Origin: Escherichia phage vB_EcoP-CC1
DNA length: 44,532 bases
Sequence record: OX457022
Reading direction: 5' to 3' (one strand)
Shown piece by piece: positions 2,516-28,857 of this stretch. The notes beneath the pieces were generated by a model. The model ran no database searches, was not told the DNA's origin, and saw nothing but the letters and a program-made list of their open reading frames with translations. The first letter of the stretch is position 1; every line of letters starts with the position of its first letter. Position numbers and translations under genes: made by a program.

Positions 2516-3001
2516 ATGTCAGAGACTGATATTAGAAAGATTGATATTGGAGAGTACGTCGTACGCCGTGCAGCTTACCGAGATGCCAACTGGAATAAAC
2601 TGTGTGAAAGACTAAACAAGAAACCAGATGAGGTATTCAAAGTATCCAGTGCAGAACCTAATTATAACTCTATCATGTTAGAAGGTGTTGAGAAGCGCGA
2701 ATGGTATGCGCCTTACTTCCATGTTGTTGACTCATTGCAAGGTGAAGAACCTAACACGTTGGACAACAATATGGTTACTAAGCCGAAGCACTATGAGTTC
2801 TTCGAAGGTGTAGAAGCGATTACTATCATTGCCCGCAGCATGACCGAGAAGCAATTCGCTGGCTATTGCATGGGTAATGCTTTGAAGTACCGCCTACGTG
2901 CAGGTAAGAAGTTCAACACTGAAGAAGACCTGAAGAAAGCAGACTACTATAAGGAGTTATTCCAGAAGCATCGTCACGAATGTATTGATGAGGATATTTG
3001 A
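2516..3001 (+). CDS. T7 gp1.7-like nucleotide (dNMP) kinase
   Basis: C-terminal half KPKHYEFFEGVEAITIIARSMTEKQFAGYCMGNALKYRLRAGKK...ADYYKELFQKH matches recalled C-terminus of T7 gene 1.7 protein; GGAGGA 8 nt upstream of ATG 2516. Confidence 0.55.
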   Translation: MSETDIRKIDIGEYVVRRAAYRDANWNKLCERLNKKPDEVFKVSSAEPNYNSIMLEGVEKREWYAPYFHVVDSLQGEEPNTLDNNMVTKPKHYEFFEGVEAITIIARSMTEKQFAGYCMGNALKYRLRAGKKFNTEEDLKKADYYKELFQKHRHECIDEDI

Positions 3002-3002
3002 T

Positions 3003-3950
3003 ATGAATATCTTTGAGTTCCTAGGTCTTCCAGAAGATCACCGCAACCACCCATTCATGTTGGTGAAACATCGTGGTGAAGTCCCTGAGAAGAAATTAAC
3101 CTTTCCATGTTATGCACAGGTGAAACGAGATGGAATATTCAGTGCTGTTGTGGTGCGTAATGATGGTGCTGTTGCCATCTTTGGTCGTACTGGTAAGAAG
3201 CTCGCAAATGTTGAAGCCTTGGAAAAGACATTTAGTGTATTTCCTGTCGGGTTGTATCTTGGTGAGTTGCAATCTATGGCTGTTGATGTTTATCTTGAAG
3301 CTCTATCAGGAGTGGTAAACCCTAATCGTACAGAGCCACTTGATTTCATAGGCCAGCAGATTAAAGACAACCTGTATATCGACTTCTTCGATATGTTAAC
3401 CATTAAGGCATTCCATGATGGATTCACTGATGTTTCTTATCTCAAACGTTACGATGCTTTACATCGTCGCATCGGCACTCATCTTAGCGGGTACAACGCT
3501 ATTCTTCCTATTACTCCTTGCCATAATGAGAGAGAGGTTGAAGCGTTTGCTCAAGAGCAAATAGATGCAGGCCGAGAGGGTGCTGTCTTTAAACTTGACT
3601 GTGATTATGAAGCAGGCCATAAAGGATATCGTCAGACTAAAGAAGTCCGTAAGGTAACTTATGACCTTACTTGTATTGGCTTTGAAGAAGGCAAAGGTAA
3701 GTACAAGGGTAAGGTAGCTAACCTCATTTTCAAATGGAAAGGAGGCAAGACAATCAAAGCTATGCTAGGTAAGGGGTGGACTCATGCAGATGCAGAACAG
3801 ATGTTCCATGATATTAAACATGGCGGACGATTGAATGTCATTGGTAAAATCTTTGAAGTCAAAGGTCTTCAGGATTCAAGCAAGGGCAACATTCGTCAGC
3901 CCAAAGCGGGAGAATTAAGACATGACAAAGATGAACCAGATTTCTTTTGA
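3003..3950 (+). CDS. ATP-dependent DNA ligase
   Basis: Adenylation motif KxDG present as VKRDGIFSAVV; ~315 aa; ORF track start 2985, likely start ATG 3003. Confidence 0.8.
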   Translation: MNIFEFLGLPEDHRNHPFMLVKHRGEVPEKKLTFPCYAQVKRDGIFSAVVVRNDGAVAIFGRTGKKLANVEALEKTFSVFPVGLYLGELQSMAVDVYLEALSGVVNPNRTEPLDFIGQQIKDNLYIDFFDMLTIKAFHDGFTDVSYLKRYDALHRRIGTHLSGYNAILPITPCHNEREVEAFAQEQIDAGREGAVFKLDCDYEAGHKGYRQTKEVRKVTYDLTCIGFEEGKGKYKGKVANLIFKWKGGKTIKAMLGKGWTHADAEQMFHDIKHGGRLNVIGKIFEVKGLQDSSKGNIRQPKAGELRHDKDEPDFF

Positions 3951-4141: not shown

Positions 4142-4270
4142 ATGGAGATGCTTGAGATGATTCTCAAGCCTTCTTCTCCGAAAGTAACTAAGACTCATGA
4201 AGAGTTAATCGTAGATGAAGTGAAGCGTTACATTATGGATTGTGTCAAGGCACAACTGGTAGTCCAATGA
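4142..4270 (+). CDS. hypothetical protein (about 42 aa)
   Basis: Short ORF filling gap between flanking genes; start uncertain (ORF track 4088). Confidence 0.25.
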   Translation: MEMLEMILKPSSPKVTKTHEELIVDEVKRYIMDCVKAQLVVQ

Positions 4271-4728
4271 TACGTCAAGCATCTTTCTTAGATATACCTG
4301 AGATTATTAATCTAGGCGACAAGTATGTAGAAGAGGAAGTTAAGGTAGTAGCACACCACTCTCCTTCATGGAATGCAGAACAAAGCGCAGCAAACCTGTG
4401 TGCATCTCTTGTCCGAGATGATTTATTCTTATGGGTTGCTGTAGATGAGGGAATCATTGTAGGATTCCTATGGGCTGGGTATCATGACTTAGCACCTTGG
4501 ACACCAGTGCGTGTTGCATCTGATATTCTTTTCTACATCGTACCAGAGAAGCGTGGCACTCTCTTAGGAATGAGACTTATCAAAGCCTATAAGCAATGGG
4601 CTTTTGAGAAGGAATGTGCTGAAGTGAGACTGTCTATTGCCTCTGGTATCAATGAAGAGCGTGTTGGGCGTATGTATGAGCGGTTAGGCTTTGAGACGTT
4701 CGGCACTGTGTATAACCTGAAACTTTAA
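4267..4728 (+). CDS. hypothetical protein, possible GNAT-like acetyltransferase
   Basis: 153 aa; VPEKRGTLLGMRLI and C-terminal YERLGFE resemble GNAT motif A and C-terminal signature; weak, unverified. Confidence 0.4.
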   Translation: MIRQASFLDIPEIINLGDKYVEEEVKVVAHHSPSWNAEQSAANLCASLVRDDLFLWVAVDEGIIVGFLWAGYHDLAPWTPVRVASDILFYIVPEKRGTLLGMRLIKAYKQWAFEKECAEVRLSIASGINEERVGRMYERLGFETFGTVYNLKL

Positions 4729-4737
4729 GGAGGCAAT

Positions 4738-4947
4738 ATGGGTGTCGTGAAGAAGGCATTTAAAGCAATTGGTCTTGCACCTGAGACGCCGAAAATTGAG
4801 GCGGCTAAGACTCCGGCACAACAGTTAGCGCGTGAACCGGAGACTACGGCAGAGGATATTACATTAGGCCAAGATGATAGCGCAACTGCTGCGGCACGTG
4901 GCAAGCGTGGCCTGATTCGTCCAGTGGCATCGAGCTTAGGGGTTTAA
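4738..4947 (+). CDS. small Ala/Pro/Thr-rich protein, possibly virion-associated
   Basis: 69 aa; AAGGAGG RBS 7 nt upstream; immediately precedes portal gene (position of small head proteins in T7-like genomes). Confidence 0.45.
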   Translation: MGVVKKAFKAIGLAPETPKIEAAKTPAQQLAREPETTAEDITLGQDDSATAAARGKRGLIRPVASSLGV

Positions 4948-7413: not shown

Positions 7414-7435
7414 ATTTACTGGACACTATAGAAGG
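7414..7435 (+). promoter_or_regulatory. phage RNAP promoter class I (ATTTACTGGACACTATAGAAGG), +1 G at 7431; capsid promoter
   Basis: Exact family consensus 55 nt upstream of capsid ATG. Confidence 0.85.
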
Positions 7436-7485: not shown

Positions 7486-8685
7486 ATGTCTACACCGAAC
7501 ACTCTGACTAACGTTGCTGTGTCCGCATCTGGTGAGGTTGACAGCCTTCTTATTGAGAAGTTTAATGGTAAGGTAAACGAGCAGTACCTGAAAGGTGAGA
7601 ACATTCTGTCCTACTTTGATGTACAGACGGTAACTGGTACTAACACGGTTAGCAATAAATATTTAGGTGAAACTGAGTTGCAGGTGTTAGCACCGGGTCA
7701 GTCACCTAATGCTACTCCAACTCAGGCCGATAAAAACCAGTTGGTAATTGATACCACTGTGATCGCCCGTAACACCGTGGCACACATCCACGACGTACAG
7801 GGTGACATCGACAGCCTTAAGCCTAAGTTGGCTATGAACCAAGCCAAGCAACTGAAGCGTCTGGAAGACCAGATGGCAATCCAGCAGATGCTGTTAGGTG
7901 GCATCGCTAACACCAAAGCAAAGCGTAACAAACCTCGTGTAAAAGGACACGGCTTCTCTATCAACGTTAACGTGACTGAAAGTGAAGCACTGGCTAACCC
8001 GCAGTATGTCATGGCTGCTGTAGAATATGCTCTGGAGCAGCAGCTTGAACAGGAAGTGGATATCTCTGATGTAGCGATCCTGATGCCGTGGAAATTCTTC
8101 AACTCGCTGCGTGACGCAGACCGCATTGTAGATAAGACTTACACTATTAGTCAGTCCGGTGCTACTATCAGTGGCTTTGTTCTGTCTTCCTACAACTGCC
8201 CTGTTATCCCGTCTAACCGATTCCCGACATTTGTACAGAGTGCTCCACATCACTTACTGTCTAACGAAGATAACGGTTATCGTTATGACCCTACCGCAGA
8301 GATGAACGGCGCTGTAGCTGTGCTGTTTACTGCTGATGCATTGCTGGTAGGTCGCACCATTGAAGTAACAGGTGACATCTTCTATGAGAAGAAAGAGAAG
8401 ACTTACTATATTGATACCTTCATGGCTGAAGGTGCAATCCCTGACCGCTGGGAGGCTGTGTCTGTAGTTACTACTAAACGTAATGCAGGTACTGGTGCGG
8501 CTGACGGTGCAGGCGACGATCACGCAACCGTACTGGCTCGTGCACAGCGTAAGGCTGTCTACGTCAAGACCGCAGGTGCTGCCGCATTATCCGCCGCTAG
8601 CCTGCAAGCAGAAGACTTAGTAGCCGCTGTACGTGCTGTAATGGCTAATGACGTCAAGCCGACTGCACTGAAACCTACTGAGTAA
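7486..8685 (+). CDS. major capsid protein
   Basis: 399 aa; own strong promoter and RBS, followed by terminator; canonical position after scaffold gene. Confidence 0.85.
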   Translation: MSTPNTLTNVAVSASGEVDSLLIEKFNGKVNEQYLKGENILSYFDVQTVTGTNTVSNKYLGETELQVLAPGQSPNATPTQADKNQLVIDTTVIARNTVAHIHDVQGDIDSLKPKLAMNQAKQLKRLEDQMAIQQMLLGGIANTKAKRNKPRVKGHGFSINVNVTESEALANPQYVMAAVEYALEQQLEQEVDISDVAILMPWKFFNSLRDADRIVDKTYTISQSGATISGFVLSSYNCPVIPSNRFPTFVQSAPHHLLSNEDNGYRYDPTAEMNGAVAVLFTADALLVGRTIEVTGDIFYEKKEKTYYIDTFMAEGAIPDRWEAVSVVTTKRNAGTGAADGAGDDHATVLARAQRKAVYVKTAGAAALSAASLQAEDLVAAVRAVMANDVKPTALKPTE

Positions 8686-18600: not shown

Positions 18601-19425
18601 AAGAGATTAAAGCAGCACTTGATGGGTGAGAGACAATTACCTAAAGCAGACCTTGAAGAAGTAGGCCTAAGTGAAGATGTCATGAAAAGACTTAAGCGTC
18701 ACTTTGATGACAACCCTCTGTACGCTGAGTACAATGGAGAAAAAGTTCGTATGCTGAACTTTGATGCTATGGAGCCAGACCTGAGAGAGACAGTGGGTGT
18801 TGCTGTGCGAAGAATGTCAGGCCGTCTTATTCAACGTAACTTCATTGGCGATGAAGGTATCTGGATGAATAAATGGTGGGGTAAGGCATTAACGCAGTTT
18901 AAGTCATTCTCTATTGTCTCTATTGAGAAACAGCTAATCCATGATTTACGAGGTGATAAGATTCAGGCTGCACAGATACTTGCATGGTCTACTTTACTAG
19001 GTTATGCATCTTATGCACTACAGATGCAGATGCAAGCGATTGGTAGGGAGGATAGAGACAAGTTCTTGAGGGATAAGTTTGACACACAGAACATCGCTAT
19101 GGGTGTCTTTAATAAACTTCCACAAGTTGCAGGCTTTGGTTTAGCTGGTGATGCTTTGGCAACCTTTGGCCTAATGCCAGACTCCATGATGCAAGCACCG
19201 GGACGCATGGGTTTCCGTCAGCAAGGCTTTGGGGATTTGGTAGCAGGTGCTGGTGTAATAAGTGATACAGTTAATTTGTCACAAGCACTGGTTAAGTATG
19301 CCAGTGGAGACGATGATGTCTCTACGAGGCAGTTGGTAGACAAGGTTCGTCGCCTTGTTCCTTTGGCAAATACTATTGGTGTGGGTCAGATGACTAAAGC
19401 CAGTGTAGATTTATTGGAGGATTGA
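15622..19425 (+). CDS. internal virion protein (gp16-like, large ejection protein)
   Basis: 1267 aa, third internal-core gene, RBS AGGAGG; size close to T7 gp16. Confidence 0.75.
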   Translation: MVDSINQNWVAVTQRKLPPTFSQIAEAERKAEAQRANDKVFQTALESEWALYGGQRAYERHTTEFAEQEGYEVPESTKDELSKLYGYEIAQDIVKNVKSPEELQFRMSNAAADKDRADILARNGFTGFSAQIAAGILDPVGWAASLVAAPVAGAVKVGRLGRIIKTAALSGAENAALEAILAQGDYQRGVDDVLAAAGFGMIMGGTIGAATRERIASAGSRTAAERADAVVDDLDTVVKGADEFDSSAARAVREAMEYDAYMAARNYEPLRAREVDADMAILSHTDNLKANASVRMSASEKGQLKKQIRQLEAEAATLKGKKIDTVAEAAAAKGAPKSAADRLDLDVQKKALARRFDEPLADLQARLDELNAKLSRVNNVGKAKEELKRFSSLSREEQIKELGLDAPVRKVEMTRAVRDAIDAIRAERKKTPTEIHAEQVAEDAIKQRADDSVGAKRVEGSEIAGEQFDLSKNMEELMDDLAREAYQSEVRPINLKGLGSVSSVILNSENPVFRGLGLRLLENAQGGAYQGKTASILSDVYGNLIRHAERNRYNDGFSQFIKDNNLRAVDYLNPATTRDFNNQIYTAIVRGIPEDTPRGVKLAAEGIADKLKKALEIRKQAGERGFEDVQSAKDYIPVIYDGIKITEAVNKLGSSEAVIHLLSKGYQTGKYKLGKKAADALAKVQYIRASDSTLSSRVAFDRVVSQQQQAQLIEDLKKAGVPDHIIDNFIEGTELAEMAESVSNRAKASMGINTQAEYGGLKVQDLLNTNVGELAENYGKEAAGGAALAAMGFPTRQSVLNAIDAAERAGRNMAGSNAKAIKQLRAEAEMLRDAVKLIYGNTIDADPNSGIVRGTRRVREITGLLRLGQMGFAQIPELARAISKMGLGTVLKSIPATKFLRSRAARKGGTAQGELLEPELREMEELLGYIGEDNWLTGWNVRHDEFGETADNLGKLSAIIDNGLAMGSRINTILSGFKAVQGGSEKIVARSINKRLKQHLMGERQLPKADLEEVGLSEDVMKRLKRHFDDNPLYAEYNGEKVRMLNFDAMEPDLRETVGVAVRRMSGRLIQRNFIGDEGIWMNKWWGKALTQFKSFSIVSIEKQLIHDLRGDKIQAAQILAWSTLLGYASYALQMQMQAIGREDRDKFLRDKFDTQNIAMGVFNKLPQVAGFGLAGDALATFGLMPDSMMQAPGRMGFRQQGFGDLVAGAGVISDTVNLSQALVKYASGDDDVSTRQLVDKVRRLVPLANTIGVGQMTKASVDLLED

Positions 19426-22400
19426 TGAGTTATACATATACAGACCATGTAGCTAATGGCTCACAGGTTACATTCCCTTTTCGTTTTGCAGGCAGAGATA
19501 AGGCATACATTAGTGCGACAGATGTCCAAGTGGGTTTTGTAGAAGCAGGCACTTGGCTGCCAGCAACAGGTTGGACGCTAAGTGGCACCAATCAGATCAC
19601 TTTCTTAACCCCACCGACAGAAGGTAAACAAATACGAATCAGACGTATTGTAGATAAAATAAACCCATATGCTTACTTCGAGCGGGGTAATGTTTTAGAT
19701 ATTAACTCTTTAAATAACTCATTCATTAAGAACCTGCAAGTCAGTCAAGAAATCCTTGATGGCTTCTTCCCAGAAGGTTTCTACTTCAAGACAGACTTAG
19801 ACATGGGTGGTCATAAGATCATAAACCTACATGAAGGTTCGGAGTCAGGTGATGCTGTAAATTATGATCAGTTTAAAGAGTTATCAGACCGCGTTAATGA
19901 GATTGAGTCAGATTTAACAGGTTTATCTCACAGAACAGTACCTATGTATTATATTGCAACTGGCGGAGAGTCACGTTGGGAGATCGGTCACTGGACTTTC
20001 GACGCTGCAATATTATTTATTAATGGTATATTCCAGAACCAAAACCTAGGAGCTTTTACCATCAGCAACAACGGTTTTAACTTTGCAGAACCATTGCAGA
20101 AGGGGGATGAAGTATATGCCCTTGTAGGAAGCCGCATTGCAGCACCCGATGAGTATGTAACAATCTCTGACTTGAAAGACCCAGATAAAGCATGGAGGCT
20201 AATTGGACGTAAGTACCCATTTGCGACAGATGGAACTTTTATGTCAAAAGTGGTACATGATGTAGACTACTCCAATATCTTCATTGGAGCATCAGGACTT
20301 AGTCAAGGCTTCTGTATTGTAGACACTCCGCAAGGTGCTCGCATGTTCTTCCATCAACCTATCCCAAGCACTAATAAGGTTCGTTTCGTTGAAACAACCT
20401 TTAACCCTGAAGGGGATAATGAAAATCCTTCTGTTATTTCATTCAGCCAGGAACTGGATGATATTGGACACCAGACTGTGTGTGGTGTATATGAGGCGGG
20501 GGGTGTGCGTTTGTACACCTTGAGTGCAGATGAAAAATCTTATTATATCATAGATTGGTTAGGTAATAATACGTCTAATGCACATATGCGTAAGGTGCAG
20601 ATCCCTACGGAGGGTATCTACTCTAAGGACTTATTTGTCTCAGTGGGCATGTCAGAAGATACTAAAACGCTGGTATTCCATGCAACCACCAATACTCAGG
20701 CTTTTGGTAACAAGGATGATGCGAGAGCTATTTACCTCTTCGATAGAAAAACATTGGATTCAACCTCAACTAGAGGTCTTAAGCGTAGATTCGAAGTAGG
20801 AGCACCTGCTGCACCAGATATGGTCTTCCAAGGGGTTGCTTGTGATGACCGCTTCTTGTATATATATCAGGGATATAATGGTGTCCTGCTGTCTCACAAG
20901 ATCTCCGTCTTCACCCTCTCAGGGGAGCATGTACGGGATATTCCCGTTGATAGTGTGCGTGTAAAATATGGAGAAAGGATGTATGGTGACGAAACTTTAG
21001 GGTATCCTGTATTGCAGGAACCGGAAGGTTTGGCAATGTATAAAGGCAAACTTTATATGTTGTGTATGGATTTCTGGTACAAGAATGCAAGTGTAGTTAC
21101 TTTCGCTGGCAGGACTTTTGCTACAAGGAAATCTTCAGCGTTTTCTGGGTACAGTCCATTACAAGCATCATATTGGACACCTACGAACCTAATACCACCT
21201 ACGGGTGCACCAGAGTATAACAAGACTGCTACTTATTCCTGCTCTAATGCTACTAAGCTCAGTAAAGCTATTGTTAGCTTAGAAATAGATGATGGCACAG
21301 GCTTCCCTGCAAGTGTTGGGTGTTCTTTGCCAGAGAGTAGCGCCAGTGTATACCTAAACAACCGAGCGATGAATATGGCTATTGGCCCGAATGAAAACTT
21401 CCAGTTTGGGGTATTTCACCAGAACCTACAGTCATACAAAAACCTGTTACAGCTCAATAGAGAGAACCCAAATACGGATGGATCAGCGGCTGTGTGGAGG
21501 TTGTTCGGAGGTGCGTTCACAGATGACATTCAGAATGAAAGATTTGTTCAGATTAAGCATAGACTTAATCCCACACAAGATGCCATGGAGCTTCGTGCGG
21601 ATGTTGACCTTACGAGCGGTGGTGGGATTAACTTGTATTCTATGAACGACTCTGCCTCTCCTGGTCGAGTAAGGCTATATTGTACTGACGGGTATTCTTA
21701 TTGGTCAGCTCTACTGAGTCCTGTATCCCCATCTTTTCACCCTGATCAAGATAAGACTCTAAACTTAGGTACAGCAAACAACCGTTGGAACCTAGTCCAT
21801 TGTCAAGGTATCCGTATCATCTCTAACGACGAGTTACAGAAGCAAGTCTTTCTTGAAACTACCCGTAAAAAAGGTGCACTACAGATCTCCACTTCCGGCA
21901 ATCTAGGGGTGTGGGATAGTAGCGCAGGTACTTATGTTGTGGCAACCAGACCTGATGGTACAGGCTTTTCACAGGTAGAGATGAGCTTCAAAGGTGATGT
22001 TTTTCCTGAAATAAATAATACTTACAATTTAGGTCGTGAGAATAAGGCATGGGCTAATGCCTACTTTCAAAACGCACCGACTGTTGTCTGTGATGCCAGA
22101 CTTAAAACAGATGCTAGGGAGTTAACAGACGCAGAGAAATCCGCATTCTTAGAGATCTCTAAACTTCCGGCAGTTTGGCAATGGCTTGCTAAACTGGAAG
22201 TAGAAGGAGAGGATGCCCGCTTACACTCTGGATGTACTGTCCAAGCTGCTATCTCGGTTATGGAGAAACATGGCCTAGATTGGACTAAGTATAGTGCTTT
22301 CTGTTATGACAAATGGGATGCCAAGGAGGCTGTCTATGATATAGTGGATGGTAAGGCTATCCTTGTTGAAGAGGCAGTTGAGGCTGGCGACCGTTATCGT

Positions 22401-22508
22401 CTTCGTAGAGAAGAGCTGATGTGGTGGTGCATGAAGGCACAGAATGCTTGGATTGAATCTATTGAGGGGAGGCTGGCGAAATTAGAAGATAAACTCAAGG
22501 AGGTGTAA
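19422..22508 (+). CDS. tail fibre/tailspike with T7 gp17-like N-terminal attachment domain
   Basis: 1028 aa; position of T7 gene 17 and N-terminal region loosely resembles recalled gp17 attachment domain (no motif checked); C-terminal CDARLKTDARELTDAEKSAF resembles S74 intramolecular-chaperone motif; probable depolymerase body. Confidence 0.8.
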   Translation: MMSYTYTDHVANGSQVTFPFRFAGRDKAYISATDVQVGFVEAGTWLPATGWTLSGTNQITFLTPPTEGKQIRIRRIVDKINPYAYFERGNVLDINSLNNSFIKNLQVSQEILDGFFPEGFYFKTDLDMGGHKIINLHEGSESGDAVNYDQFKELSDRVNEIESDLTGLSHRTVPMYYIATGGESRWEIGHWTFDAAILFINGIFQNQNLGAFTISNNGFNFAEPLQKGDEVYALVGSRIAAPDEYVTISDLKDPDKAWRLIGRKYPFATDGTFMSKVVHDVDYSNIFIGASGLSQGFCIVDTPQGARMFFHQPIPSTNKVRFVETTFNPEGDNENPSVISFSQELDDIGHQTVCGVYEAGGVRLYTLSADEKSYYIIDWLGNNTSNAHMRKVQIPTEGIYSKDLFVSVGMSEDTKTLVFHATTNTQAFGNKDDARAIYLFDRKTLDSTSTRGLKRRFEVGAPAAPDMVFQGVACDDRFLYIYQGYNGVLLSHKISVFTLSGEHVRDIPVDSVRVKYGERMYGDETLGYPVLQEPEGLAMYKGKLYMLCMDFWYKNASVVTFAGRTFATRKSSAFSGYSPLQASYWTPTNLIPPTGAPEYNKTATYSCSNATKLSKAIVSLEIDDGTGFPASVGCSLPESSASVYLNNRAMNMAIGPNENFQFGVFHQNLQSYKNLLQLNRENPNTDGSAAVWRLFGGAFTDDIQNERFVQIKHRLNPTQDAMELRADVDLTSGGGINLYSMNDSASPGRVRLYCTDGYSYWSALLSPVSPSFHPDQDKTLNLGTANNRWNLVHCQGIRIISNDELQKQVFLETTRKKGALQISTSGNLGVWDSSAGTYVVATRPDGTGFSQVEMSFKGDVFPEINNTYNLGRENKAWANAYFQNAPTVVCDARLKTDARELTDAEKSAFLEISKLPAVWQWLAKLEVEGEDARLHSGCTVQAAISVMEKHGLDWTKYSAFCYDKWDAKEAVYDIVDGKAILVEEAVEAGDRYRLRREELMWWCMKAQNAWIESIEGRLAKLEDKLKEV

Positions 22509-22702
22509 TGATAAACTCCGAACTGGTAGATAATGGTGTGAAGCTGGCGCCACCTGCATTAGTCTCAGGTGGGTACTTCCTCGGTATCAGTTGGGACAAT
22601 TTGGTACTGATAGCAACATTCATTTATACAGTGTTGCAGATTGGCGATTGGTTCTATACTAAATATACAATATGGAGGAATAAGCATGAGCGTGCACAAT
22701 AA
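22508..22702 (+). CDS. class II holin (T7 gp17.5-like)
   Basis: 64 aa; segment FIYTVLQIGDWFY resembles T7 holin YTVVQIGAKV; hydrophobic core plus basic C-terminus; RBS AAGGAGG. Confidence 0.7.
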   Translation: MINSELVDNGVKLAPPALVSGGYFLGISWDNLVLIATFIYTVLQIGDWFYTKYTIWRNKHERAQ

Positions 22703-22985
22703 ACATGCAGCCACAGAGGATGAAGTAGGCATCCTTCATGGCGCTATTACGAAGATGTTTAATAAGAAAGCACAGGCTATACTGGACACTATAGAAGAAG
22801 ACCCTGATTCTGCTATGCACTTAGTGTCAGGTAAGGATATTGGAGCCATGTGTAAGTGGGTTTTAGATAATGGCATTACTGCAACCCCTGCTGCACAGCA
22901 GGAAGAATCTAAGTTGTCTAAGCGTCTCAAGGCTATCCGAGAGGCGTCCAGTGGTAAGATCATTCAGTTTACTAAGGAGGATTAA
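22686..22985 (+). CDS. terminase small subunit (gp18-like)
   Basis: 99 aa from ATG 22686 (GGAGGA upstream); immediately precedes terminase large subunit. Confidence 0.55.
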   Translation: MSVHNKHAATEDEVGILHGAITKMFNKKAQAILDTIEEDPDSAMHLVSGKDIGAMCKWVLDNGITATPAAQQEESKLSKRLKAIREASSGKIIQFTKED

Positions 22986-24880
22986 TGGCTAAGGCAAGAG
23001 AATCACAAGCGGAGGCTCTTGCCAGATGGGAGATGCTACACGAGTTACAGCAGACCTTCCCTTATACGGCAGAAGGTTTGCTTCTCTTTGCTGATACAGT
23101 TATTCATAATTTAATTGCAGGTAGTCCTCATCTGATTCGTATGCAGGCAGACATCTTGAAGTTCCTATTCTATGGGCACAAGTATCGCCTCATCGAAGCG
23201 CCCCGTGGTATCGCTAAAACTACGCTGGCAGCAATCTATACGGTGTTCCGTATCATTCATGAGCCTCATAAGCGTATCATGGTTGTATCCCAAAACGCCA
23301 AGCGAGCAGAGGAAATTGCAGGTTGGGTGGTCAAAATCTTCCGAGGATTGGACTTCCTTGAGTTTATGCTACCGGATATATATGCTGGCGACCGTGCATC
23401 CGTCAAGGCATTTGAGATTCACTACACGTTACGCGGCAGCGATAAGTCGCCTTCTGTATCCTGTTACTCTATCGAAGCAGGAATGCAGGGTGCTCGTGCT
23501 GACATCATTCTAGCAGATGACGTTGAATCTATGCAGAATGCGCGTACAGCAGCAGGTCGTGCATTACTTGAGGAACTGACAAAGGAGTTTGAATCTATCA
23601 ACCAGTTTGGTGATATCATCTACCTTGGTACACCTCAGAACGTCAACTCAATCTATAATAACCTTCCGGCTCGTGGTTATTCCGTGCGCATCTGGACTGC
23701 TCGCTATCCTTCGGTAGAACAGGAGCAATGCTATGGTGATTTCCTTGCACCTATGATTGTGCAAGATATGAAGGATAACCCAGCATTGCGAACAGGCTAT
23801 GGTCTGGATGGCAACAGCGGCGCTCCTTGTGCGCCTGAAATGTACGATGATGATGTCCTGATTGAGAAGGAAATCTCACAGGGTGCTGCTAAATTCCAGC
23901 TTCAGTTCATGCTTAACACTCGCATGATGGATGCTGACAGATACCCATTGCGCCTAAACAATCTAATCTTCACCTCATTTGGTACAGAGGAAGTCCCTGT
24001 GATGCCTACGTGGAGTAATGATTCCATTAACATCATTGGGGATGCACCTAAGTATGGCAACAAGCCTACAGATTTCATGTATCGACCTGTGGCACGTCCA
24101 TACGAATGGGGTGCTGTTACACGCAAGATTATGTATATTGACCCCGCTGGTGGCGGTAAGAACGGAGATGAGACTGGTGTAGCCATCGTATTCCTGCACG
24201 GCACATTCATTTATGTGTATCAGTGCTTTGGTGTACCGGGCGGATACCGAGAATCTTCCCTGAATCGCATTGTGCAGGCCGCAAAGCAGGCAGGGGTTAA
24301 AGAGGTATTCATAGAGAAAAACTTTGGTCATGGCGCGTTTGAGGCGGTAATTAAGCCATACTTTGAACGAGAGTGGCCTGTGACACTTGAAGAGGATTAC
24401 GCAACTGGTCAGAAAGAACTCCGCATCATTGAGACGCTAGAGCCATTGATGACCGCGCATAGGCTCATCTTCAATGCGGAAATGGTTAAGTCAGATTTCG
24501 CTTCAGTACAGAACTACCCGCTTGAACTGCGGATGTCTTATAGTCTGTTCCATCAAATGTCGAACATCACTATTGAGAAGAACAGCCTTAGGCATGATGA
24601 CCGCTTAGACGCTCTGTATGGCGCTGTGCGTCAATTAACTTCCCAGATAGACTATGACGAGGTTACTCGAATTAATCGCCTCAGAGCGCAGGAGATGCGC
24701 GATTATATACAGGCGATGAATACACCTAAACTTCGTCGGGCTATGCTGTACGGCGATTATGGTGATGAGCGAAGAACAACCAACACCTCCTTAGCGATGC
24801 AGCAGCGGGTTTACGGTCAGAATTGGAGGAGCCGCTCTGGGTCTAGAAATACACTTTCCTCAAGGATTTCAAGGATTTAG
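22985..24880 (+). CDS. terminase large subunit
   Basis: 631 aa, position and size of T7 gp19; no nucleotide-binding motif could be confirmed by eye. Confidence 0.85.
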   Translation: MAKARESQAEALARWEMLHELQQTFPYTAEGLLLFADTVIHNLIAGSPHLIRMQADILKFLFYGHKYRLIEAPRGIAKTTLAAIYTVFRIIHEPHKRIMVVSQNAKRAEEIAGWVVKIFRGLDFLEFMLPDIYAGDRASVKAFEIHYTLRGSDKSPSVSCYSIEAGMQGARADIILADDVESMQNARTAAGRALLEELTKEFESINQFGDIIYLGTPQNVNSIYNNLPARGYSVRIWTARYPSVEQEQCYGDFLAPMIVQDMKDNPALRTGYGLDGNSGAPCAPEMYDDDVLIEKEISQGAAKFQLQFMLNTRMMDADRYPLRLNNLIFTSFGTEEVPVMPTWSNDSINIIGDAPKYGNKPTDFMYRPVARPYEWGAVTRKIMYIDPAGGGKNGDETGVAIVFLHGTFIYVYQCFGVPGGYRESSLNRIVQAAKQAGVKEVFIEKNFGHGAFEAVIKPYFEREWPVTLEEDYATGQKELRIIETLEPLMTAHRLIFNAEMVKSDFASVQNYPLELRMSYSLFHQMSNITIEKNSLRHDDRLDALYGAVRQLTSQIDYDEVTRINRLRAQEMRDYIQAMNTPKLRRAMLYGDYGDERRTTNTSLAMQQRVYGQNWRSRSGSRNTLSSRISRI

Positions 24881-24881
24881 T

Positions 24882-24903
24882 ATTTACTGGACACTATAGG
24901 AGG
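24882..24903 (+). promoter_or_regulatory. phage RNAP promoter class I (ATTTACTGGACACTATAGGAGG), +1 G at 24899
   Basis: Family consensus immediately after terminase stop. Confidence 0.8.
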
Positions 24904-24920
24904 AAGACCAAGAGAGTAAA

Positions 24921-24963: not shown

Positions 24964-25037
24964 TGTACCTTAGTATGGGTGTACTCCTGTACACCTATTC
25001 TTACTTGCTATTTACTTATACGTATAAGGAGTATTAG

Positions 25038-25319
25038 ATGGCTAATGATTATAGTAATCAGCCCTTAACTGGTCGCTATGACCGTAAACAGATTACACCA
25101 ACTAGTGAAGCATTAATGCTCCCTGTTGTTACAGAGGAGTCTATTAAGAAGAAAGCCAATGTTATCAATGATGCAACCAAATCTGGTAAACAGAAAGCAG
25201 CAATGGTGTGTCGTCCTGTAGGTGGCACTCTTGAGATTGCCATTGCTACTGGTAGCAAAGAGGATGCAGATTGGTTGTCTGTTAAAATGGATGGCGTTGG
25301 TTTTATTACACCGGCTTAA
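25038..25319 (+). CDS. hypothetical protein, paralog 1 of 3 (SGKQK...IAIATGS motif)
   Basis: 93 aa; strong RBS AAGGAG; shares LSGKQKxAMV...IAIAxGS...DxW block with next two ORFs. Confidence 0.6.
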   Translation: MANDYSNQPLTGRYDRKQITPTSEALMLPVVTEESIKKKANVINDATKSGKQKAAMVCRPVGGTLEIAIATGSKEDADWLSVKMDGVGFITPA

Positions 25320-25336
25320 TAAAAGGAGAAGATAAT

Positions 25337-25624
25337 ATGTCTAAGTATGGCGATGCAGGTACGACTACTGGTCAGGCTTTTCGTGTAAAAGCAGTACAAA
25401 CTATTGCAACTGCAATCCCTATGCCTATCGTGGCAGAAGCTGACCTTAAAAAGAAAGATCATCCAATTAATATTGAACACCTATCTGGTAAGCAGAAAGG
25501 TGCTATGGTGGTTGTAGATAAAGGAGATAATAGCCTTTATATTGCTATTGCACGTGGTTCTGCACCAACTGACCAGTGGGATGTAACTACTATGGAAGCT
25601 GTACCTGTAACACCAGGAGCTTAA
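25337..25624 (+). CDS. hypothetical protein, paralog 2 of 3
   Basis: 95 aa; RBS AAAGGAGA; same conserved block. Confidence 0.6.
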   Translation: MSKYGDAGTTTGQAFRVKAVQTIATAIPMPIVAEADLKKKDHPINIEHLSGKQKGAMVVVDKGDNSLYIAIARGSAPTDQWDVTTMEAVPVTPGA

Positions 25625-25625
25625 T

Positions 25626-26315
25626 ATGCTGGGAGTAACAGGACAACGCAATAAGAATGTAGCCACCAAAGTAGTGGCTGATTTAGCTACTGCTGCTACT
25701 GTCGAGGAATTACGAGACACACATAACTCTATTAACCGTGCTGACCTTTCTGGTAAACAAGAAGGTTCTGTTGTTCTTGTTAAGAAAGAGGATGGCAACT
25801 ATTCTATCTTTGTAGCAACAGGTAGCAAGCCTACTGATGTTTGGAAAGAGTTGTCTCCAACAATACCAGAGCAAGAGATGCCTGCTGAATATATTGATAT
25901 GGTTGATATTCAAATTCATCAAGACTCTGCAAGTAACTTACGTATGGATTCTTCTCGCACGAGCTTAATACAAACACCAATGTGGGATACTGAAGGTGAA
26001 TTGCTATTCCGTAATACCCTGAGCGCAACATGTTCTTGTACCATTCTTGCTGACGGTGCATCTGGTGTTCGTCAGGATTTTAATTTTAAGATTAATGGAA
26101 TCTTAGAGCAAGAAGAGCAGTATTATGACATTGACACTCTTATGTGCTCTATTCATTCTGCAACAACAACTAATGGTCTTACACTGTGTATGCCAGATGT
26201 TAAGAGCGCAAAGACCAATAAGATGGTAGTAAAGGTCGACACTATGCAGTCATTAACAATGAGTTTTGATCTTAACTTCCTTGTTGAATGGACGTCACCT
26301 ACGAGGTTACTATAA
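25626..26315 (+). CDS. hypothetical protein, paralog 3 of 3 with ~150-aa C-terminal extension
   Basis: 229 aa; N-terminal 80 aa carries the shared block (LSGKQEGSVVLV...IFVATGSKPTDVW). Confidence 0.6.
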   Translation: MLGVTGQRNKNVATKVVADLATAATVEELRDTHNSINRADLSGKQEGSVVLVKKEDGNYSIFVATGSKPTDVWKELSPTIPEQEMPAEYIDMVDIQIHQDSASNLRMDSSRTSLIQTPMWDTEGELLFRNTLSATCSCTILADGASGVRQDFNFKINGILEQEEQYYDIDTLMCSIHSATTTNGLTLCMPDVKSAKTNKMVVKVDTMQSLTMSFDLNFLVEWTSPTRLL

Positions 26316-26659
26316 TGCTAAACGAATACTTCAAGCGTAAAGAATTTGCTTGCCGTTGTGGGTGCGGTACATCCACTGTTGATGCTGAGTTACTACAGGT
26401 AGTAACAGATGTGCGTGAGCACTTTGGTGCTCCTGTGGTTATTACTTCTGGTCATCGTTGCGCCAAGCACAATGCTAATGTAGGTAGAGCTAAGAACTCC
26501 ATGCATCTTACTGGTAAGGCTGCTGACATTAAGGTCACTGGTGTTAGCCCAATGGAGGTACGTGCGTACCTATGCAATAAGTACACTGATAAGTATGGCA
26601 TTGGTGCTTATCCTACTTTTACACATATCGACGTTAGAGGTAACAAAGCACGATGGTAG
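26315..26659 (+). CDS. endolysin, peptidase M15-like (zinc D-Ala-D-Ala carboxypeptidase family)
   Basis: 114 aa from ATG 26315 (TAATG overlap with upstream stop); motif SGHRCAKHNANVGRAKNSMHLTGKAADI resembles M15 His/Asp zinc-binding signature. Confidence 0.6.
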   Translation: MLNEYFKRKEFACRCGCGTSTVDAELLQVVTDVREHFGAPVVITSGHRCAKHNANVGRAKNSMHLTGKAADIKVTGVSPMEVRAYLCNKYTDKYGIGAYPTFTHIDVRGNKARW

Positions 26660-26767: not shown

Positions 26768-26917
26768 ATGAAAAAGCTGTTTAAGTCTAAGAAGGTTGTA
26801 GGTGCACTAGTTGCACTAGCAATTGCCCTTGTTTCTGTAGGACTTGGTGTAGACCTTGGTTCTGGCACTGAGGGGTCTGTGACAGATGTAGTTTGCCAAG
26901 TAATTACTTGTGAATAA
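26768..26917 (+). CDS. small membrane protein (49 aa)
   Basis: Below ORF-track cutoff; GGGAGG RBS; basic N-terminus then hydrophobic span VVGALVALAIALVSVGLGV. Confidence 0.4.
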   Translation: MKKLFKSKKVVGALVALAIALVSVGLGVDLGSGTEGSVTDVVCQVITCE

Positions 26918-27255: not shown

Positions 27256-27333
27256 AGAGATAGTGCCGTTCATTTGAGCGGCCTATTACTAGCCAATCTT
27301 CATGGTGAGGGTTGGGAAGTAATAGGAGATAAC

Positions 27334-28857
27334 ATGGCTAAACTAACGAGAGTCACTGACTGGCTTGTTAAGGTAAAGTCCAGACTCACTGGTGCAGTAG
27401 AGCGACTGCTTGAAGATAAGTTAAATGACACGGTTAGTGTTAAGGACTTCGGTGCTAAGGGTGACGGTGTGACAGACGACACACAAGCATTTGCTGCCGC
27501 CTCAGCCGCATCGCCTCAAGGTGTTTATGTGCCTGACGGAACATATTTATTACCAGAAGATATTAATGGCAGGTTCTATGGTTCTGGTAAACGCATCAAG
27601 GCTGTAGGTGATGGTGGTATTCCTTTTACCAATGTAGCTCAGTCACATAGTAACCTAATATTAGGATATGATGCTGCAAAGGATTACACGGACGAAGGGA
27701 AAGGCAACCAATTAGTATTACTTGGCCCAAGCTCCGGTCGTAACCTTACCACTGGTACTAACTCCATTGTGGTAGGTGTTGGTGGCCTATCGGGTGATAC
27801 ATTAGAAGATGCACTAACAGATAAATCACCTTTCACTGGTACAGAGATTATTAGCATTGGTATCAATGCTCTTAAGAAAACTACCACTGGTAACAACATG
27901 ATTGGTATTGGTCGTGATGCCCTGAACGAGTGTAAGGATGGAAGATTCAACGTAGCTATAGGTATGTCTGCTTTGCAGCAGCTACACTCTGGTGAGGCTA
28001 ACGTAGCAATAGGGCGTTCAGCCGGTATGCGTACTGGCATCTTCACTAACGAAGATGGTGTACGATTAGGCTATACAAAATGTAGCGGTAATACCTTAAT
28101 AGGTAACGCGGCTGGTCGTGAATTGAAGTCAGGTAATCATAACACCGCCGTAGGCAATGGTGCTATGCGAGGTGTCAGTTCTGATATTAATCCATATACT
28201 GGCACTCTAGAGGGTAATTTTAATACAGCTATTGGTGTTGATACCTTAAACTCCTTAGCATCTGGTGAGTTGAACACCATGATTGGCGCAAGGGCTGGGC
28301 GTAAATTACCTAGTGGCTCTGGTAACATCTTCATCGGTGCGGATGCAGGTGCAGGTATTAACATTGAAAAGTCTAACACTCTCATTATTAACAACCACAC
28401 TGGCTTACCTTTCGTAGAAGGTATTATGGATGGTGCTCAGAGTGAGAATAACTACTTACGTGTTGATGGAAGTGTAGCACCTCAGATTGATAACACAAGA
28501 ACTTGTGGTCAGTCTAGCCGTAGATGGCAGACTGTCTTTTCTACCAATGGTGTTATCCAGACATCGGATGGACGATGCAAGGATGTCTACGATATTGCCA
28601 AGACGGAGTACATGGCTGGTCTAGAGTTATCTTCTAGTATGATTAAGTTCAAATGGACAGATACTAAAGAAGATAAGTATCACTTCGGTTGTCTGGCACA
28701 AGAGGTCATGCTGATTATGGAGAAACATGGGTTAAACCCTCTGGATTATTCCCTCGTTACCTATGATGCTGAAGCAGATATGTATGGTGTTAACTATGCA
28801 GAATTGTCTTGCTTCTGTATCGCAGCAATGTCCAATCATGTACTAGGCAGTGCGTAA
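27334..28857 (+). CDS. tailspike with pectate-lyase-like beta-helix and C-terminal S74-like chaperone domain
   Basis: 507 aa from ATG 27334 (AGGAGA RBS); motif VKDFGAKGDGVTDDTQAF typical of pectate-lyase-fold depolymerases; C-terminal SDGRCKDVYDI chaperone-like motif. Confidence 0.8.
   Translation: MAKLTRVTDWLVKVKSRLTGAVERLLEDKLNDTVSVKDFGAKGDGVTDDTQAFAAASAASPQGVYVPDGTYLLPEDINGRFYGSGKRIKAVGDGGIPFTNVAQSHSNLILGYDAAKDYTDEGKGNQLVLLGPSSGRNLTTGTNSIVVGVGGLSGDTLEDALTDKSPFTGTEIISIGINALKKTTTGNNMIGIGRDALNECKDGRFNVAIGMSALQQLHSGEANVAIGRSAGMRTGIFTNEDGVRLGYTKCSGNTLIGNAAGRELKSGNHNTAVGNGAMRGVSSDINPYTGTLEGNFNTAIGVDTLNSLASGELNTMIGARAGRKLPSGSGNIFIGADAGAGINIEKSNTLIINNHTGLPFVEGIMDGAQSENNYLRVDGSVAPQIDNTRTCGQSSRRWQTVFSTNGVIQTSDGRCKDVYDIAKTEYMAGLELSSSMIKFKWTDTKEDKYHFGCLAQEVMLIMEKHGLNPLDYSLVTYDAEADMYGVNYAELSCFCIAAMSNHVLGSA

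Follow-up and report, generated by a model that had tools for sequence, protein, structure and literature searches.

What are the three small genes that lie between the terminase and the endolysin of Escherichia phage vB_EcoP-CC1, and why are there three of them? The DNA considered in this study is the full 44,532-nt stretch of sequence record OX457022, referred to below as the window; coordinates refer to it, except where a locus fetched from another genome is named. The genes in question are three open reading frames (ORFs), ORF1, ORF2 and ORF3, encoding proteins of 93, 95 and 229 amino acids (aa). An earlier reading of the letters without database searches, which I will call the original prediction, placed them at 25038-26315, after the terminase, behind a phage promoter and ahead of an endolysin, and took their tandem triplication with divergence as a sign of diversifying selection, for example on a virion decoration or anti-defence set. 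The three ORFs are present exactly there, on the + strand. The answer I consider probable is that they encode accessory ("minor") capsid or decoration proteins of an SP6-like podovirus, with a shared beta-barrel anchor on which ORF3 would display an outer domain.

Three paralogs and their counterparts in phage Kp7

The ORFs of the region all lie on the + strand, in an order typical of SP6-like phages. The segment 24881-26700 is 100% identical to that of Escherichia phage vB_EcoP-CC2 (OX638290) and 99.8% identical to that of vB_EcoP_R4596, both classed in Vectrevirus, Molineuxvirinae (the SP6/K1E/K1-5 group).

The three proteins are paralogs, as had been claimed. By BLASTP, ORF1 and ORF2 are 41% identical over 79 aa (E 4e-12), ORF2 and ORF3 39% over 71 aa (E 6e-12), and ORF1 and ORF3 39% over 49 aa (E 1e-6). 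The shared block of about 45 aa on which the claim was based is real, but the homology is not limited to it: an alignment of 25 family members extends it to about 80 aa, the entire length of the short proteins. Invariant in all 25 are T, G, R and K in an N-terminal arm and N, S, K, A, G and W in the core, so that the module, called here the anchor domain, can be recognized by a TGQ-R-K arm followed by IN..SGKQ.GA...A.GS.PTD.W. Beyond its anchor, ORF3 has about 145 extra C-terminal residues, very nearly the unique domain of about 150 aa that had been described.

General libraries say little about any of this. Pfam has no family for ORF1, ORF2 or ORF3 at E up to 1; NCBIfam offers nothing for the first two and for ORF3 merely a 13-bit match, far below cutoff; searches of PDB sequences with the single proteins and with the family profile gave only chance-level matches (E >= 0.3); and a search of BFVD returned mostly uncharacterised family members. 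The anchor domain has no structural homolog. Among PHROG families, 2725 matches ORF1 (E 2e-37) and ORF2 (E 7e-45), and 32357, of unknown function, matches ORF3 (E 7e-123).

The AlphaFold2 (AF2) model of ORF3 (mean predicted local distance difference test score, pLDDT, 72) divides the protein into three parts. Residues 1-20 are predicted to be disordered (pLDDT <50), even though T5, G6, R8 and K10 are among the invariant positions, as would be expected of an arm that binds a partner. Residues from about 21 to 85 form a small beta-barrel, predicted to be SH3/Tudor-like with a beta-hairpin, and residues 94-229 an eight-stranded beta-sandwich. In fold comparison, the modelled C-terminal domain most resembles the distal heads of fibres and receptor-binding proteins.

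What connects the trio to the virion is Klebsiella phage Kp7 (ON148527, Molineuxvirinae), in which the large terminase (TerL, gp44) is followed by gp45 (88 aa), gp46 (88 aa), gp47 (178 aa) and the endolysin gp48. GenBank gives gp45 and gp46 as "minor capsid protein" and gp47 as "minor capsid protein with Ig-domain" (Ig, immunoglobulin). By BLASTP, ORF1 is 42% identical to gp45 (E 1e-17), ORF2 51% identical to gp46 (E 6e-20), and the N-terminal domain of ORF3 34% identical to that of gp47 (E 8e-9): the two sets are orthologs position by position, in the same slot. Bands from sodium dodecyl sulfate-polyacrylamide gel electrophoresis (SDS-PAGE) of purified Kp7 virions, identified by mass spectrometry, included the minor capsid proteins gp32, gp45, gp46 and gp47, of which the T7-like phages Kp9 and Kp11 have no counterparts (bioRxiv 10.1101/2024.05.19.594906). 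Of the two roles offered in the original prediction, virion decoration is thus favored, by syntenic orthologs found in purified virions and called minor capsid proteins; nothing supports anti-defence, although no anti-defence or defence library was searched.

Over 361 aa, the major capsid proteins of the window and of Kp7 (PDB 7y3t) share 76% identity. At 399 aa, as against 363 aa in Kp7, that of the window carries a C-terminal extension of about 38 residues (8569-8685, +). There is also a homolog of Kp7 gp32, a 69-aa ORF at 4738-4947 (+), immediately upstream of the portal gene. Both proteins end in RPVASSLGV, and the ORF matches phrog_9033 (unknown function) and phrog_1320 ("host range and adsorption protein").

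Old duplications and a third gene that comes and goes

Copy number, compared across related phages by running a hidden Markov model (HMM) of the anchor domain over fetched loci, ranges from two to four anchor domains per locus. K1E has two; CC2, mutPK1A2, NTNC80A, Kenya-K30 and Kp7 have three each; SP6 has three, the third truncated; and Klebsiella phage PA45-9 has four. Era103 and Aeromonas phage MJG have two, one short and one long. The slot between TerL and endolysin is occupied in the window, Kp7, K1E, mutPK1A2, NTNC80A, Kenya-K30, SP6, Era103, MJG and PA45-9, and metagenomic loci show the same placement. In these SP6-like genomes (Molineuxvirinae or Colwellvirinae) the short copies come first and the long copy last.

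With ORF2 as query, a word-indexed search gave 103 clusters, and no Pfam domain is recorded for any of them. A contig is recorded for 102; in 60 of these it reaches 43-47 kb, the genome size of SP6-like phages, and in the others it is shorter or longer. The same search with ORF3 found just 20 clusters, several of which, metagenomic and 158-200 aa long, seem truncated. In Vibrio phage AS51 there is an unannotated ORF of 97 codons after the terminase (fetched-locus 2929-3219) that the anchor HMM matches with E 6e-15, followed by a 558-aa pectate-lyase-like protein without an anchor domain. The anchor family therefore reaches into Colwellvirinae and is under-annotated there.

A neighbor-joining tree of anchor domains has one clade for each gene position, common to Vectrevirus, Zindervirus and Kp7, and mean identity is 0.38-0.58 within a position as compared to 0.28-0.34 between positions. 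Because the position-specific clades are shared, the duplications predate the split of the Vectrevirus, Zindervirus and Kp7-like lineages. Judged by these clades, the trio is the product of old duplications and not of a recent triplication. Nor does the evidence agree with diversifying selection. The ratio of nonsynonymous to synonymous substitution rates (dN/dS), calculated with relatives at dS >0.25, lies between 0.09 and 0.15 in each of the three genes and at about 0.07-0.10 in the C-terminal domain of ORF3. Values near 0.1 indicate purifying selection, so the inference from tandem triplication to diversification has to be given up. Variation is evidently of another kind: the third gene has its C-terminal domain swapped, lost or disrupted, rather than diversified by point mutation.

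Instances of each are at hand. The 690-bp ORF3 is present in only 11 of 108 phage records matched by megablast, and at the protein level a long form with a homologous C-terminal domain (at least 28-33% identity) is present in 30 of 103 records. K1E and K1-5 lack the third gene altogether. The long form known from Kenya-K30 is reduced in SP6 to its two ends, gp44 and gp45, by the loss of about 96 internal codons and a frameshift; SP6 (fetched-locus 3202-3637) matches residues 1-76 of the Kenya-K30 protein in one frame and residues 173-247 in another. In EEc2 the gene is broken by the insertion of a single T (fetched-locus position about 1115). Elsewhere the anchor is joined to something else. 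In Kp7 gp47 the partner is an Ig_3 domain of some 90 aa, which scores 31.2 bits (cut-off 30) and matches the Ig domain of T5 pb10 (5lxk) with E 3e-16; and the same N-terminal domain is found with a coiled-coil fibre in a 475-aa protein (P0242), with unrelated domains in proteins of 337-438 aa (P0147, P0165 and P0168) and with an SGNH esterase in Pseudomonas phage BUCT553. The third gene is, by the pattern of its presence and absence, an exchangeable and dispensable module.

Some relatives carry three anchors in one protein. An exhaustive profile search gave 235 clusters at 50% identity, and among the best 150 of the 235, which were examined, 33 contain three tandem anchor copies in a single chain of 256-407 aa (256-302 aa in 28 of the 33). 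In their alignment the three repeats are collinear, and each begins with a GD.K.R arm and closes with ...W...ITP. One such gene, that of P0127, directly follows a T7-type TerL, and at three loci the fused gene is followed by another gene with the N-terminal domain. As for wider context, a one-protein scan of IMG/VR found nothing and exact look-ups gave short contigs only. The AF2 model of P0127 is compact (pLDDT 80.5, predicted template modelling score 0.74). Since these uncultured relatives encode three repeats in one chain, they suggest a pseudo-threefold unit.

A related observation comes from K1E, where gp41 and gp42 share a reading frame and are set apart by one stop codon and 9 nt (fetched-locus 4168-4746). 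With a fused three-repeat protein as query, tblastn gives one continuous alignment across both genes. ORF1 and ORF2 of the window, unlike gp41 and gp42, are in different reading frames.

The locus and its expression signals

The features of the locus are given in Table 1.

Table 1. Features of the trio locus of vB_EcoP-CC1, with the major capsid gene. Positions are those of the window.
Feature	Position	Strand	Remarks
Major capsid protein	7486-8685	+	PHROG 267 "major head protein", E 4e-94; presumed binding partner of the trio
Small terminase	22641-22985	+	
Large terminase, TerL	22985-24880	+	
Predicted promoter for SP6/K1E-type phage RNA polymerase	24882-24904	+	23-mer ATTTACTGGACACTATAGGAGGA; ahead of trio and lysis cassette
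Hairpin, GC-containing	24975-24998	+	Between promoter and ORF1; from terminator-like scan and inverted-repeat search
ORF1, 93 aa	25038-25319	+	Anchor domain only; position-1 paralog (K1E gp41 / Kp7 gp45 type)
ORF2, 95 aa	25337-25624	+	Anchor domain only; position-2 paralog (K1E gp42 / Kp7 gp46 type)
ORF3, 229 aa	25626-26315	+	Anchor plus C-terminal domain
ORF3 N-terminal anchor domain, aa 1-85	25626-25880	+	Paralogous to ORF1 and ORF2
ORF3 C-terminal domain, aa 86-229	25881-26315	+	All-beta sandwich; interpreted as an exchangeable outer/display domain
M15 endolysin	26315-26659	+	Peptidase_M15_3, E 3e-32; neighbor, outside the trio's family
Holin	26768-26917	+	Followed by spanin
Tailspike	27274-28857	+	Pectate-lyase-like plus Peptidase_S74

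The upstream promoter and the endolysin directly downstream are both where the original prediction had them. The 23-mer of the promoter occurs at six sites in the window with no more than three mismatches, where none would be expected. The six copies, of consensus ATTTAC(T/C)GGACACTATAG(A/G)A, lie at 7414, 24882, 27234, 35411, 42027 and 43721, all on the + strand, and those at 7414 and 27234 stand directly ahead of the major capsid gene and the tailspike gene, respectively. Each of the three ORFs has, as read from the sequence, an AGGAG-type ribosome-binding site 6-8 nt upstream, in the form AAGGAG for ORF1 (25026-25031) and ORF2 (25323-25328). The start codon of the endolysin overlaps the stop codon of ORF3 (TAATG), and the CC2 record gives the endolysin gene the same bounds, 26315-26659. 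A promoter type shared with the capsid and tailspike genes, together with strong ribosome-binding sites, fits abundant late proteins.

What had been taken for an origin-like array amounts to a few short, imperfect ATATAGG repeats and the hairpin listed in Table 1, and no evidence of an origin was found there. The hairpin is annotated as a putative terminator in the near-identical R4596, and may be a partial terminator or an element of RNA processing or stability.

Two neighbors deserve mention. The TerL gene ends (24860-24877, +) in a perfect 9-nt tandem duplication, TCAAGGATT twice over, which encodes the C-terminal SRISRI. Farther upstream, at 19422-22508 (+), a 1028-aa gene occupies the position of the tail adaptor of SP6 and K1E, where the adaptor is about 320 aa. 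Its product combines the N-terminus of an adaptor/tail-fibre protein (aa 1-250, phrog_2710) with a full tailspike (phrog_19921) and a chaperone-like C-terminal region. The phage appears to carry two tailspikes, one on this adaptor gene and the other after the lysis cassette (27274-28857).

What the trio may do, and what it resembles

If the three proteins are indeed decoration proteins, they may work as follows. Transcribed late from the strong phage promoter, each would contribute an anchor module of about 85 aa, consisting of a disordered N-terminal arm and a small SH3/Tudor-like beta-barrel, that would bind the outer face of the expanded HK97-fold head. ORF1 and ORF2, being bare anchors, would act as decoration or cement, and the anchor of ORF3 would present its beta-sandwich, about 145 aa in size, at the surface of the capsid, where by analogy with Hoc, pb10 and head fibres it might serve as a weak adhesin for glycans or other parts of the cell surface. 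The conserved but disordered arm, the signals of high expression, the dispensability of the third gene and the shuffling of its domains are all consistent with decoration.

Several considerations weigh against this reading. The experimental link to the virion is confined to a single sentence and the figure of a gel in the Kp7 preprint, which concerns a different phage; the assignment to the capsid, rather than to neck or tail, was made by its authors. In the PDB, gp45, gp46 and gp47 are absent from the deposited structures, 7y3t holding the major capsid protein alone, and in the literature searched for virion proteomics or cryo-electron microscopy of CC2, K1E, K1-5, SP6 and other Molineuxvirinae only the Kp7 preprint was found. 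As to assembly, HMM scoring of ORF1, ORF2 and ORF3 against repeats 1, 2 and 3 of the fused proteins gave no one-to-one match, and loci have two to four anchors, so a strict heterotrimer is not established.

The proteins could belong to the virion and yet sit at its neck or tail, as collar whiskers or accessory fibres, the anchor resting on portal, adaptor or nozzle and ORF3 forming a small side fibre. The mass spectrometry of Kp7 virions does not localise proteins. Also in favor of such a place are the fold that comes closest to the C-terminal domain of ORF3, the coiled-coil and esterase fusions among the homologs, a Marinomonas phage CPP1m homolog annotated as "Tail fiber protein", and the Ig domain of Kp7 gp47, whose PDB matches include a "neck whiskers protein" and proteins of tails. 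Against this, "minor capsid protein" was the term picked by the group that holds the Kp7 capsid structure, the promoter and ribosome-binding sites suggest a high copy number, the trio lies apart from the tail module, and attachment to the tail in SP6 and K1E goes by the adaptor gp37/38, which corresponds here to the N-terminus of the 1028-aa ORF. I consider a place at the neck or tail unlikely. It is quite improbable that the trio consists of non-structural late proteins (assembly chaperones, factors of lysis timing or, as earlier proposed, anti-defence proteins) and that their detection in Kp7 represents carry-over. The trio and the lysis cassette do belong to one transcription unit, translational coupling joins ORF3 to the endolysin, and the anchor lacks a structural homolog. 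However, purified Kp7 virions yielded bands of all three orthologs; surface-exposed virion proteins typically have such an architecture, in which a fixed N-terminal domain bears an Ig, beta-sandwich, esterase or fibre domain that can be exchanged; the genes are transcribed late, from a promoter of the type that precedes the capsid gene; and no lysis-related family appears among the PHROG matches of ORF1-3.

One further explanation is already in the databases. RefSeq names K1E gp41 and gp42, SP6 gp42 and gp43, their K1-5 counterparts and others "acetyl-CoA acetyltransferase", a label also borne by PHROG 2725. I give virtually no credence to the idea that these proteins are thiolases. The propagated product name is all that speaks for it, and it is refuted by the searches: no thiolase or other Pfam domain at E up to 1, no NCBIfam match and no PDB match. 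Thiolases are about 390 aa long, whereas ORF1 and ORF2 have just 93-95 aa. Proteins of that size without a thiolase domain mark the label as an artefact of annotation.

To return to decoration proteins, one may go further and suppose that the three paralogs co-assemble as a pseudo-threefold unit, the split-gene equivalent of the three-repeat chains, built on an anchor beta-barrel of a fold new to the decoration proteins of solved structure. Each unit would carry one swappable adhesin, giving the phage head a second surface, tunable, for binding host or mucus that evolves through the exchange of domains and independently of the tailspikes. I offer this tentatively, as a possibility that is rather doubtful. 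The pair of arrangements, three genes in one case and three repeats in the other, is in any event a clean example from nature of a virion component undergoing gene fission or fusion.

The trio adds to a family of SP6-like phage virion proteins that has hardly been characterised. Its C-terminal domain differs from that of the one member detected by experiment, and the family's misannotation extends across databases. Phages of the SP6, K1E and K1-5 types serve as models and in therapy, and this conserved gene set has neither a Pfam family nor a solved structure. If the trio does decorate the head and bear a plug-in outer domain, then annotation in hundreds of phage genomes would be corrected, phage engineering would gain a natural and dispensable scaffold for display, and a second, head-borne layer of adhesion could affect host range, retention in mucus and the pharmacokinetics of therapy.

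How does the trio compare with known systems? Tested against the family typified by the minor capsid proteins Kp7 gp45-47 (PHROG 2725, 32357 and 27324), it shares the N-terminal domain of about 85 aa, the locus (TerL, trio, M15 endolysin), the short-short-long order and a homologous capsid shell that could be bound. They differ in the outer domain, Ig_3 of about 90 aa in gp47 and an unrelated beta-sandwich of about 145 aa in ORF3, and in that presence in the virion is demonstrated for Kp7 only. The orthologs of ORF1 and ORF2 in K1E and K1-5 (gp41, gp42) and in SP6 (gp42, gp43) occupy the same slot, but the third gene is missing from the former two and survives in SP6 as the fragments gp44 and gp45.

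Hoc of T4, pb10 of T5, the head fibre gp8.5 of phi29 and gp17 of N4, display or adhesin proteins anchored on the capsid, follow a similar logic, a capsid-binding module bearing an outward Ig-like or fibrous domain that is dispensable in the laboratory. Their anchors are unrelated to that of the window, with no match in sequence or fold, and the window's anchor also stands alone, as two paralogs. ORF3 has no Ig domain of the Hoc/pb10 type by the Pfam search described above. The pair of decoration proteins of one Autographiviridae-type podovirus likewise consists of two paralogs, one short and the other with an added fibrous domain; they occupy different quasi-equivalent sites on the capsid as helix-turn-helix dimers at twofold axes, in contrast to the beta-barrel predicted here. 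Finally, the anchor fold was compared with those of the beta-tulip or OB cement proteins, gpD of lambda and Dec, and no similarity was found. Lambda gpD, Dec of phage L and Dec of P74-26 are nonetheless like the short proteins of the trio in being small (about 10-15 kDa) and in having an N-terminal arm, which in these cement proteins becomes ordered upon binding to the capsid. They form trimers at (quasi-)threefold axes, and a threefold unit is what the three-repeat relatives of the trio suggest as well.

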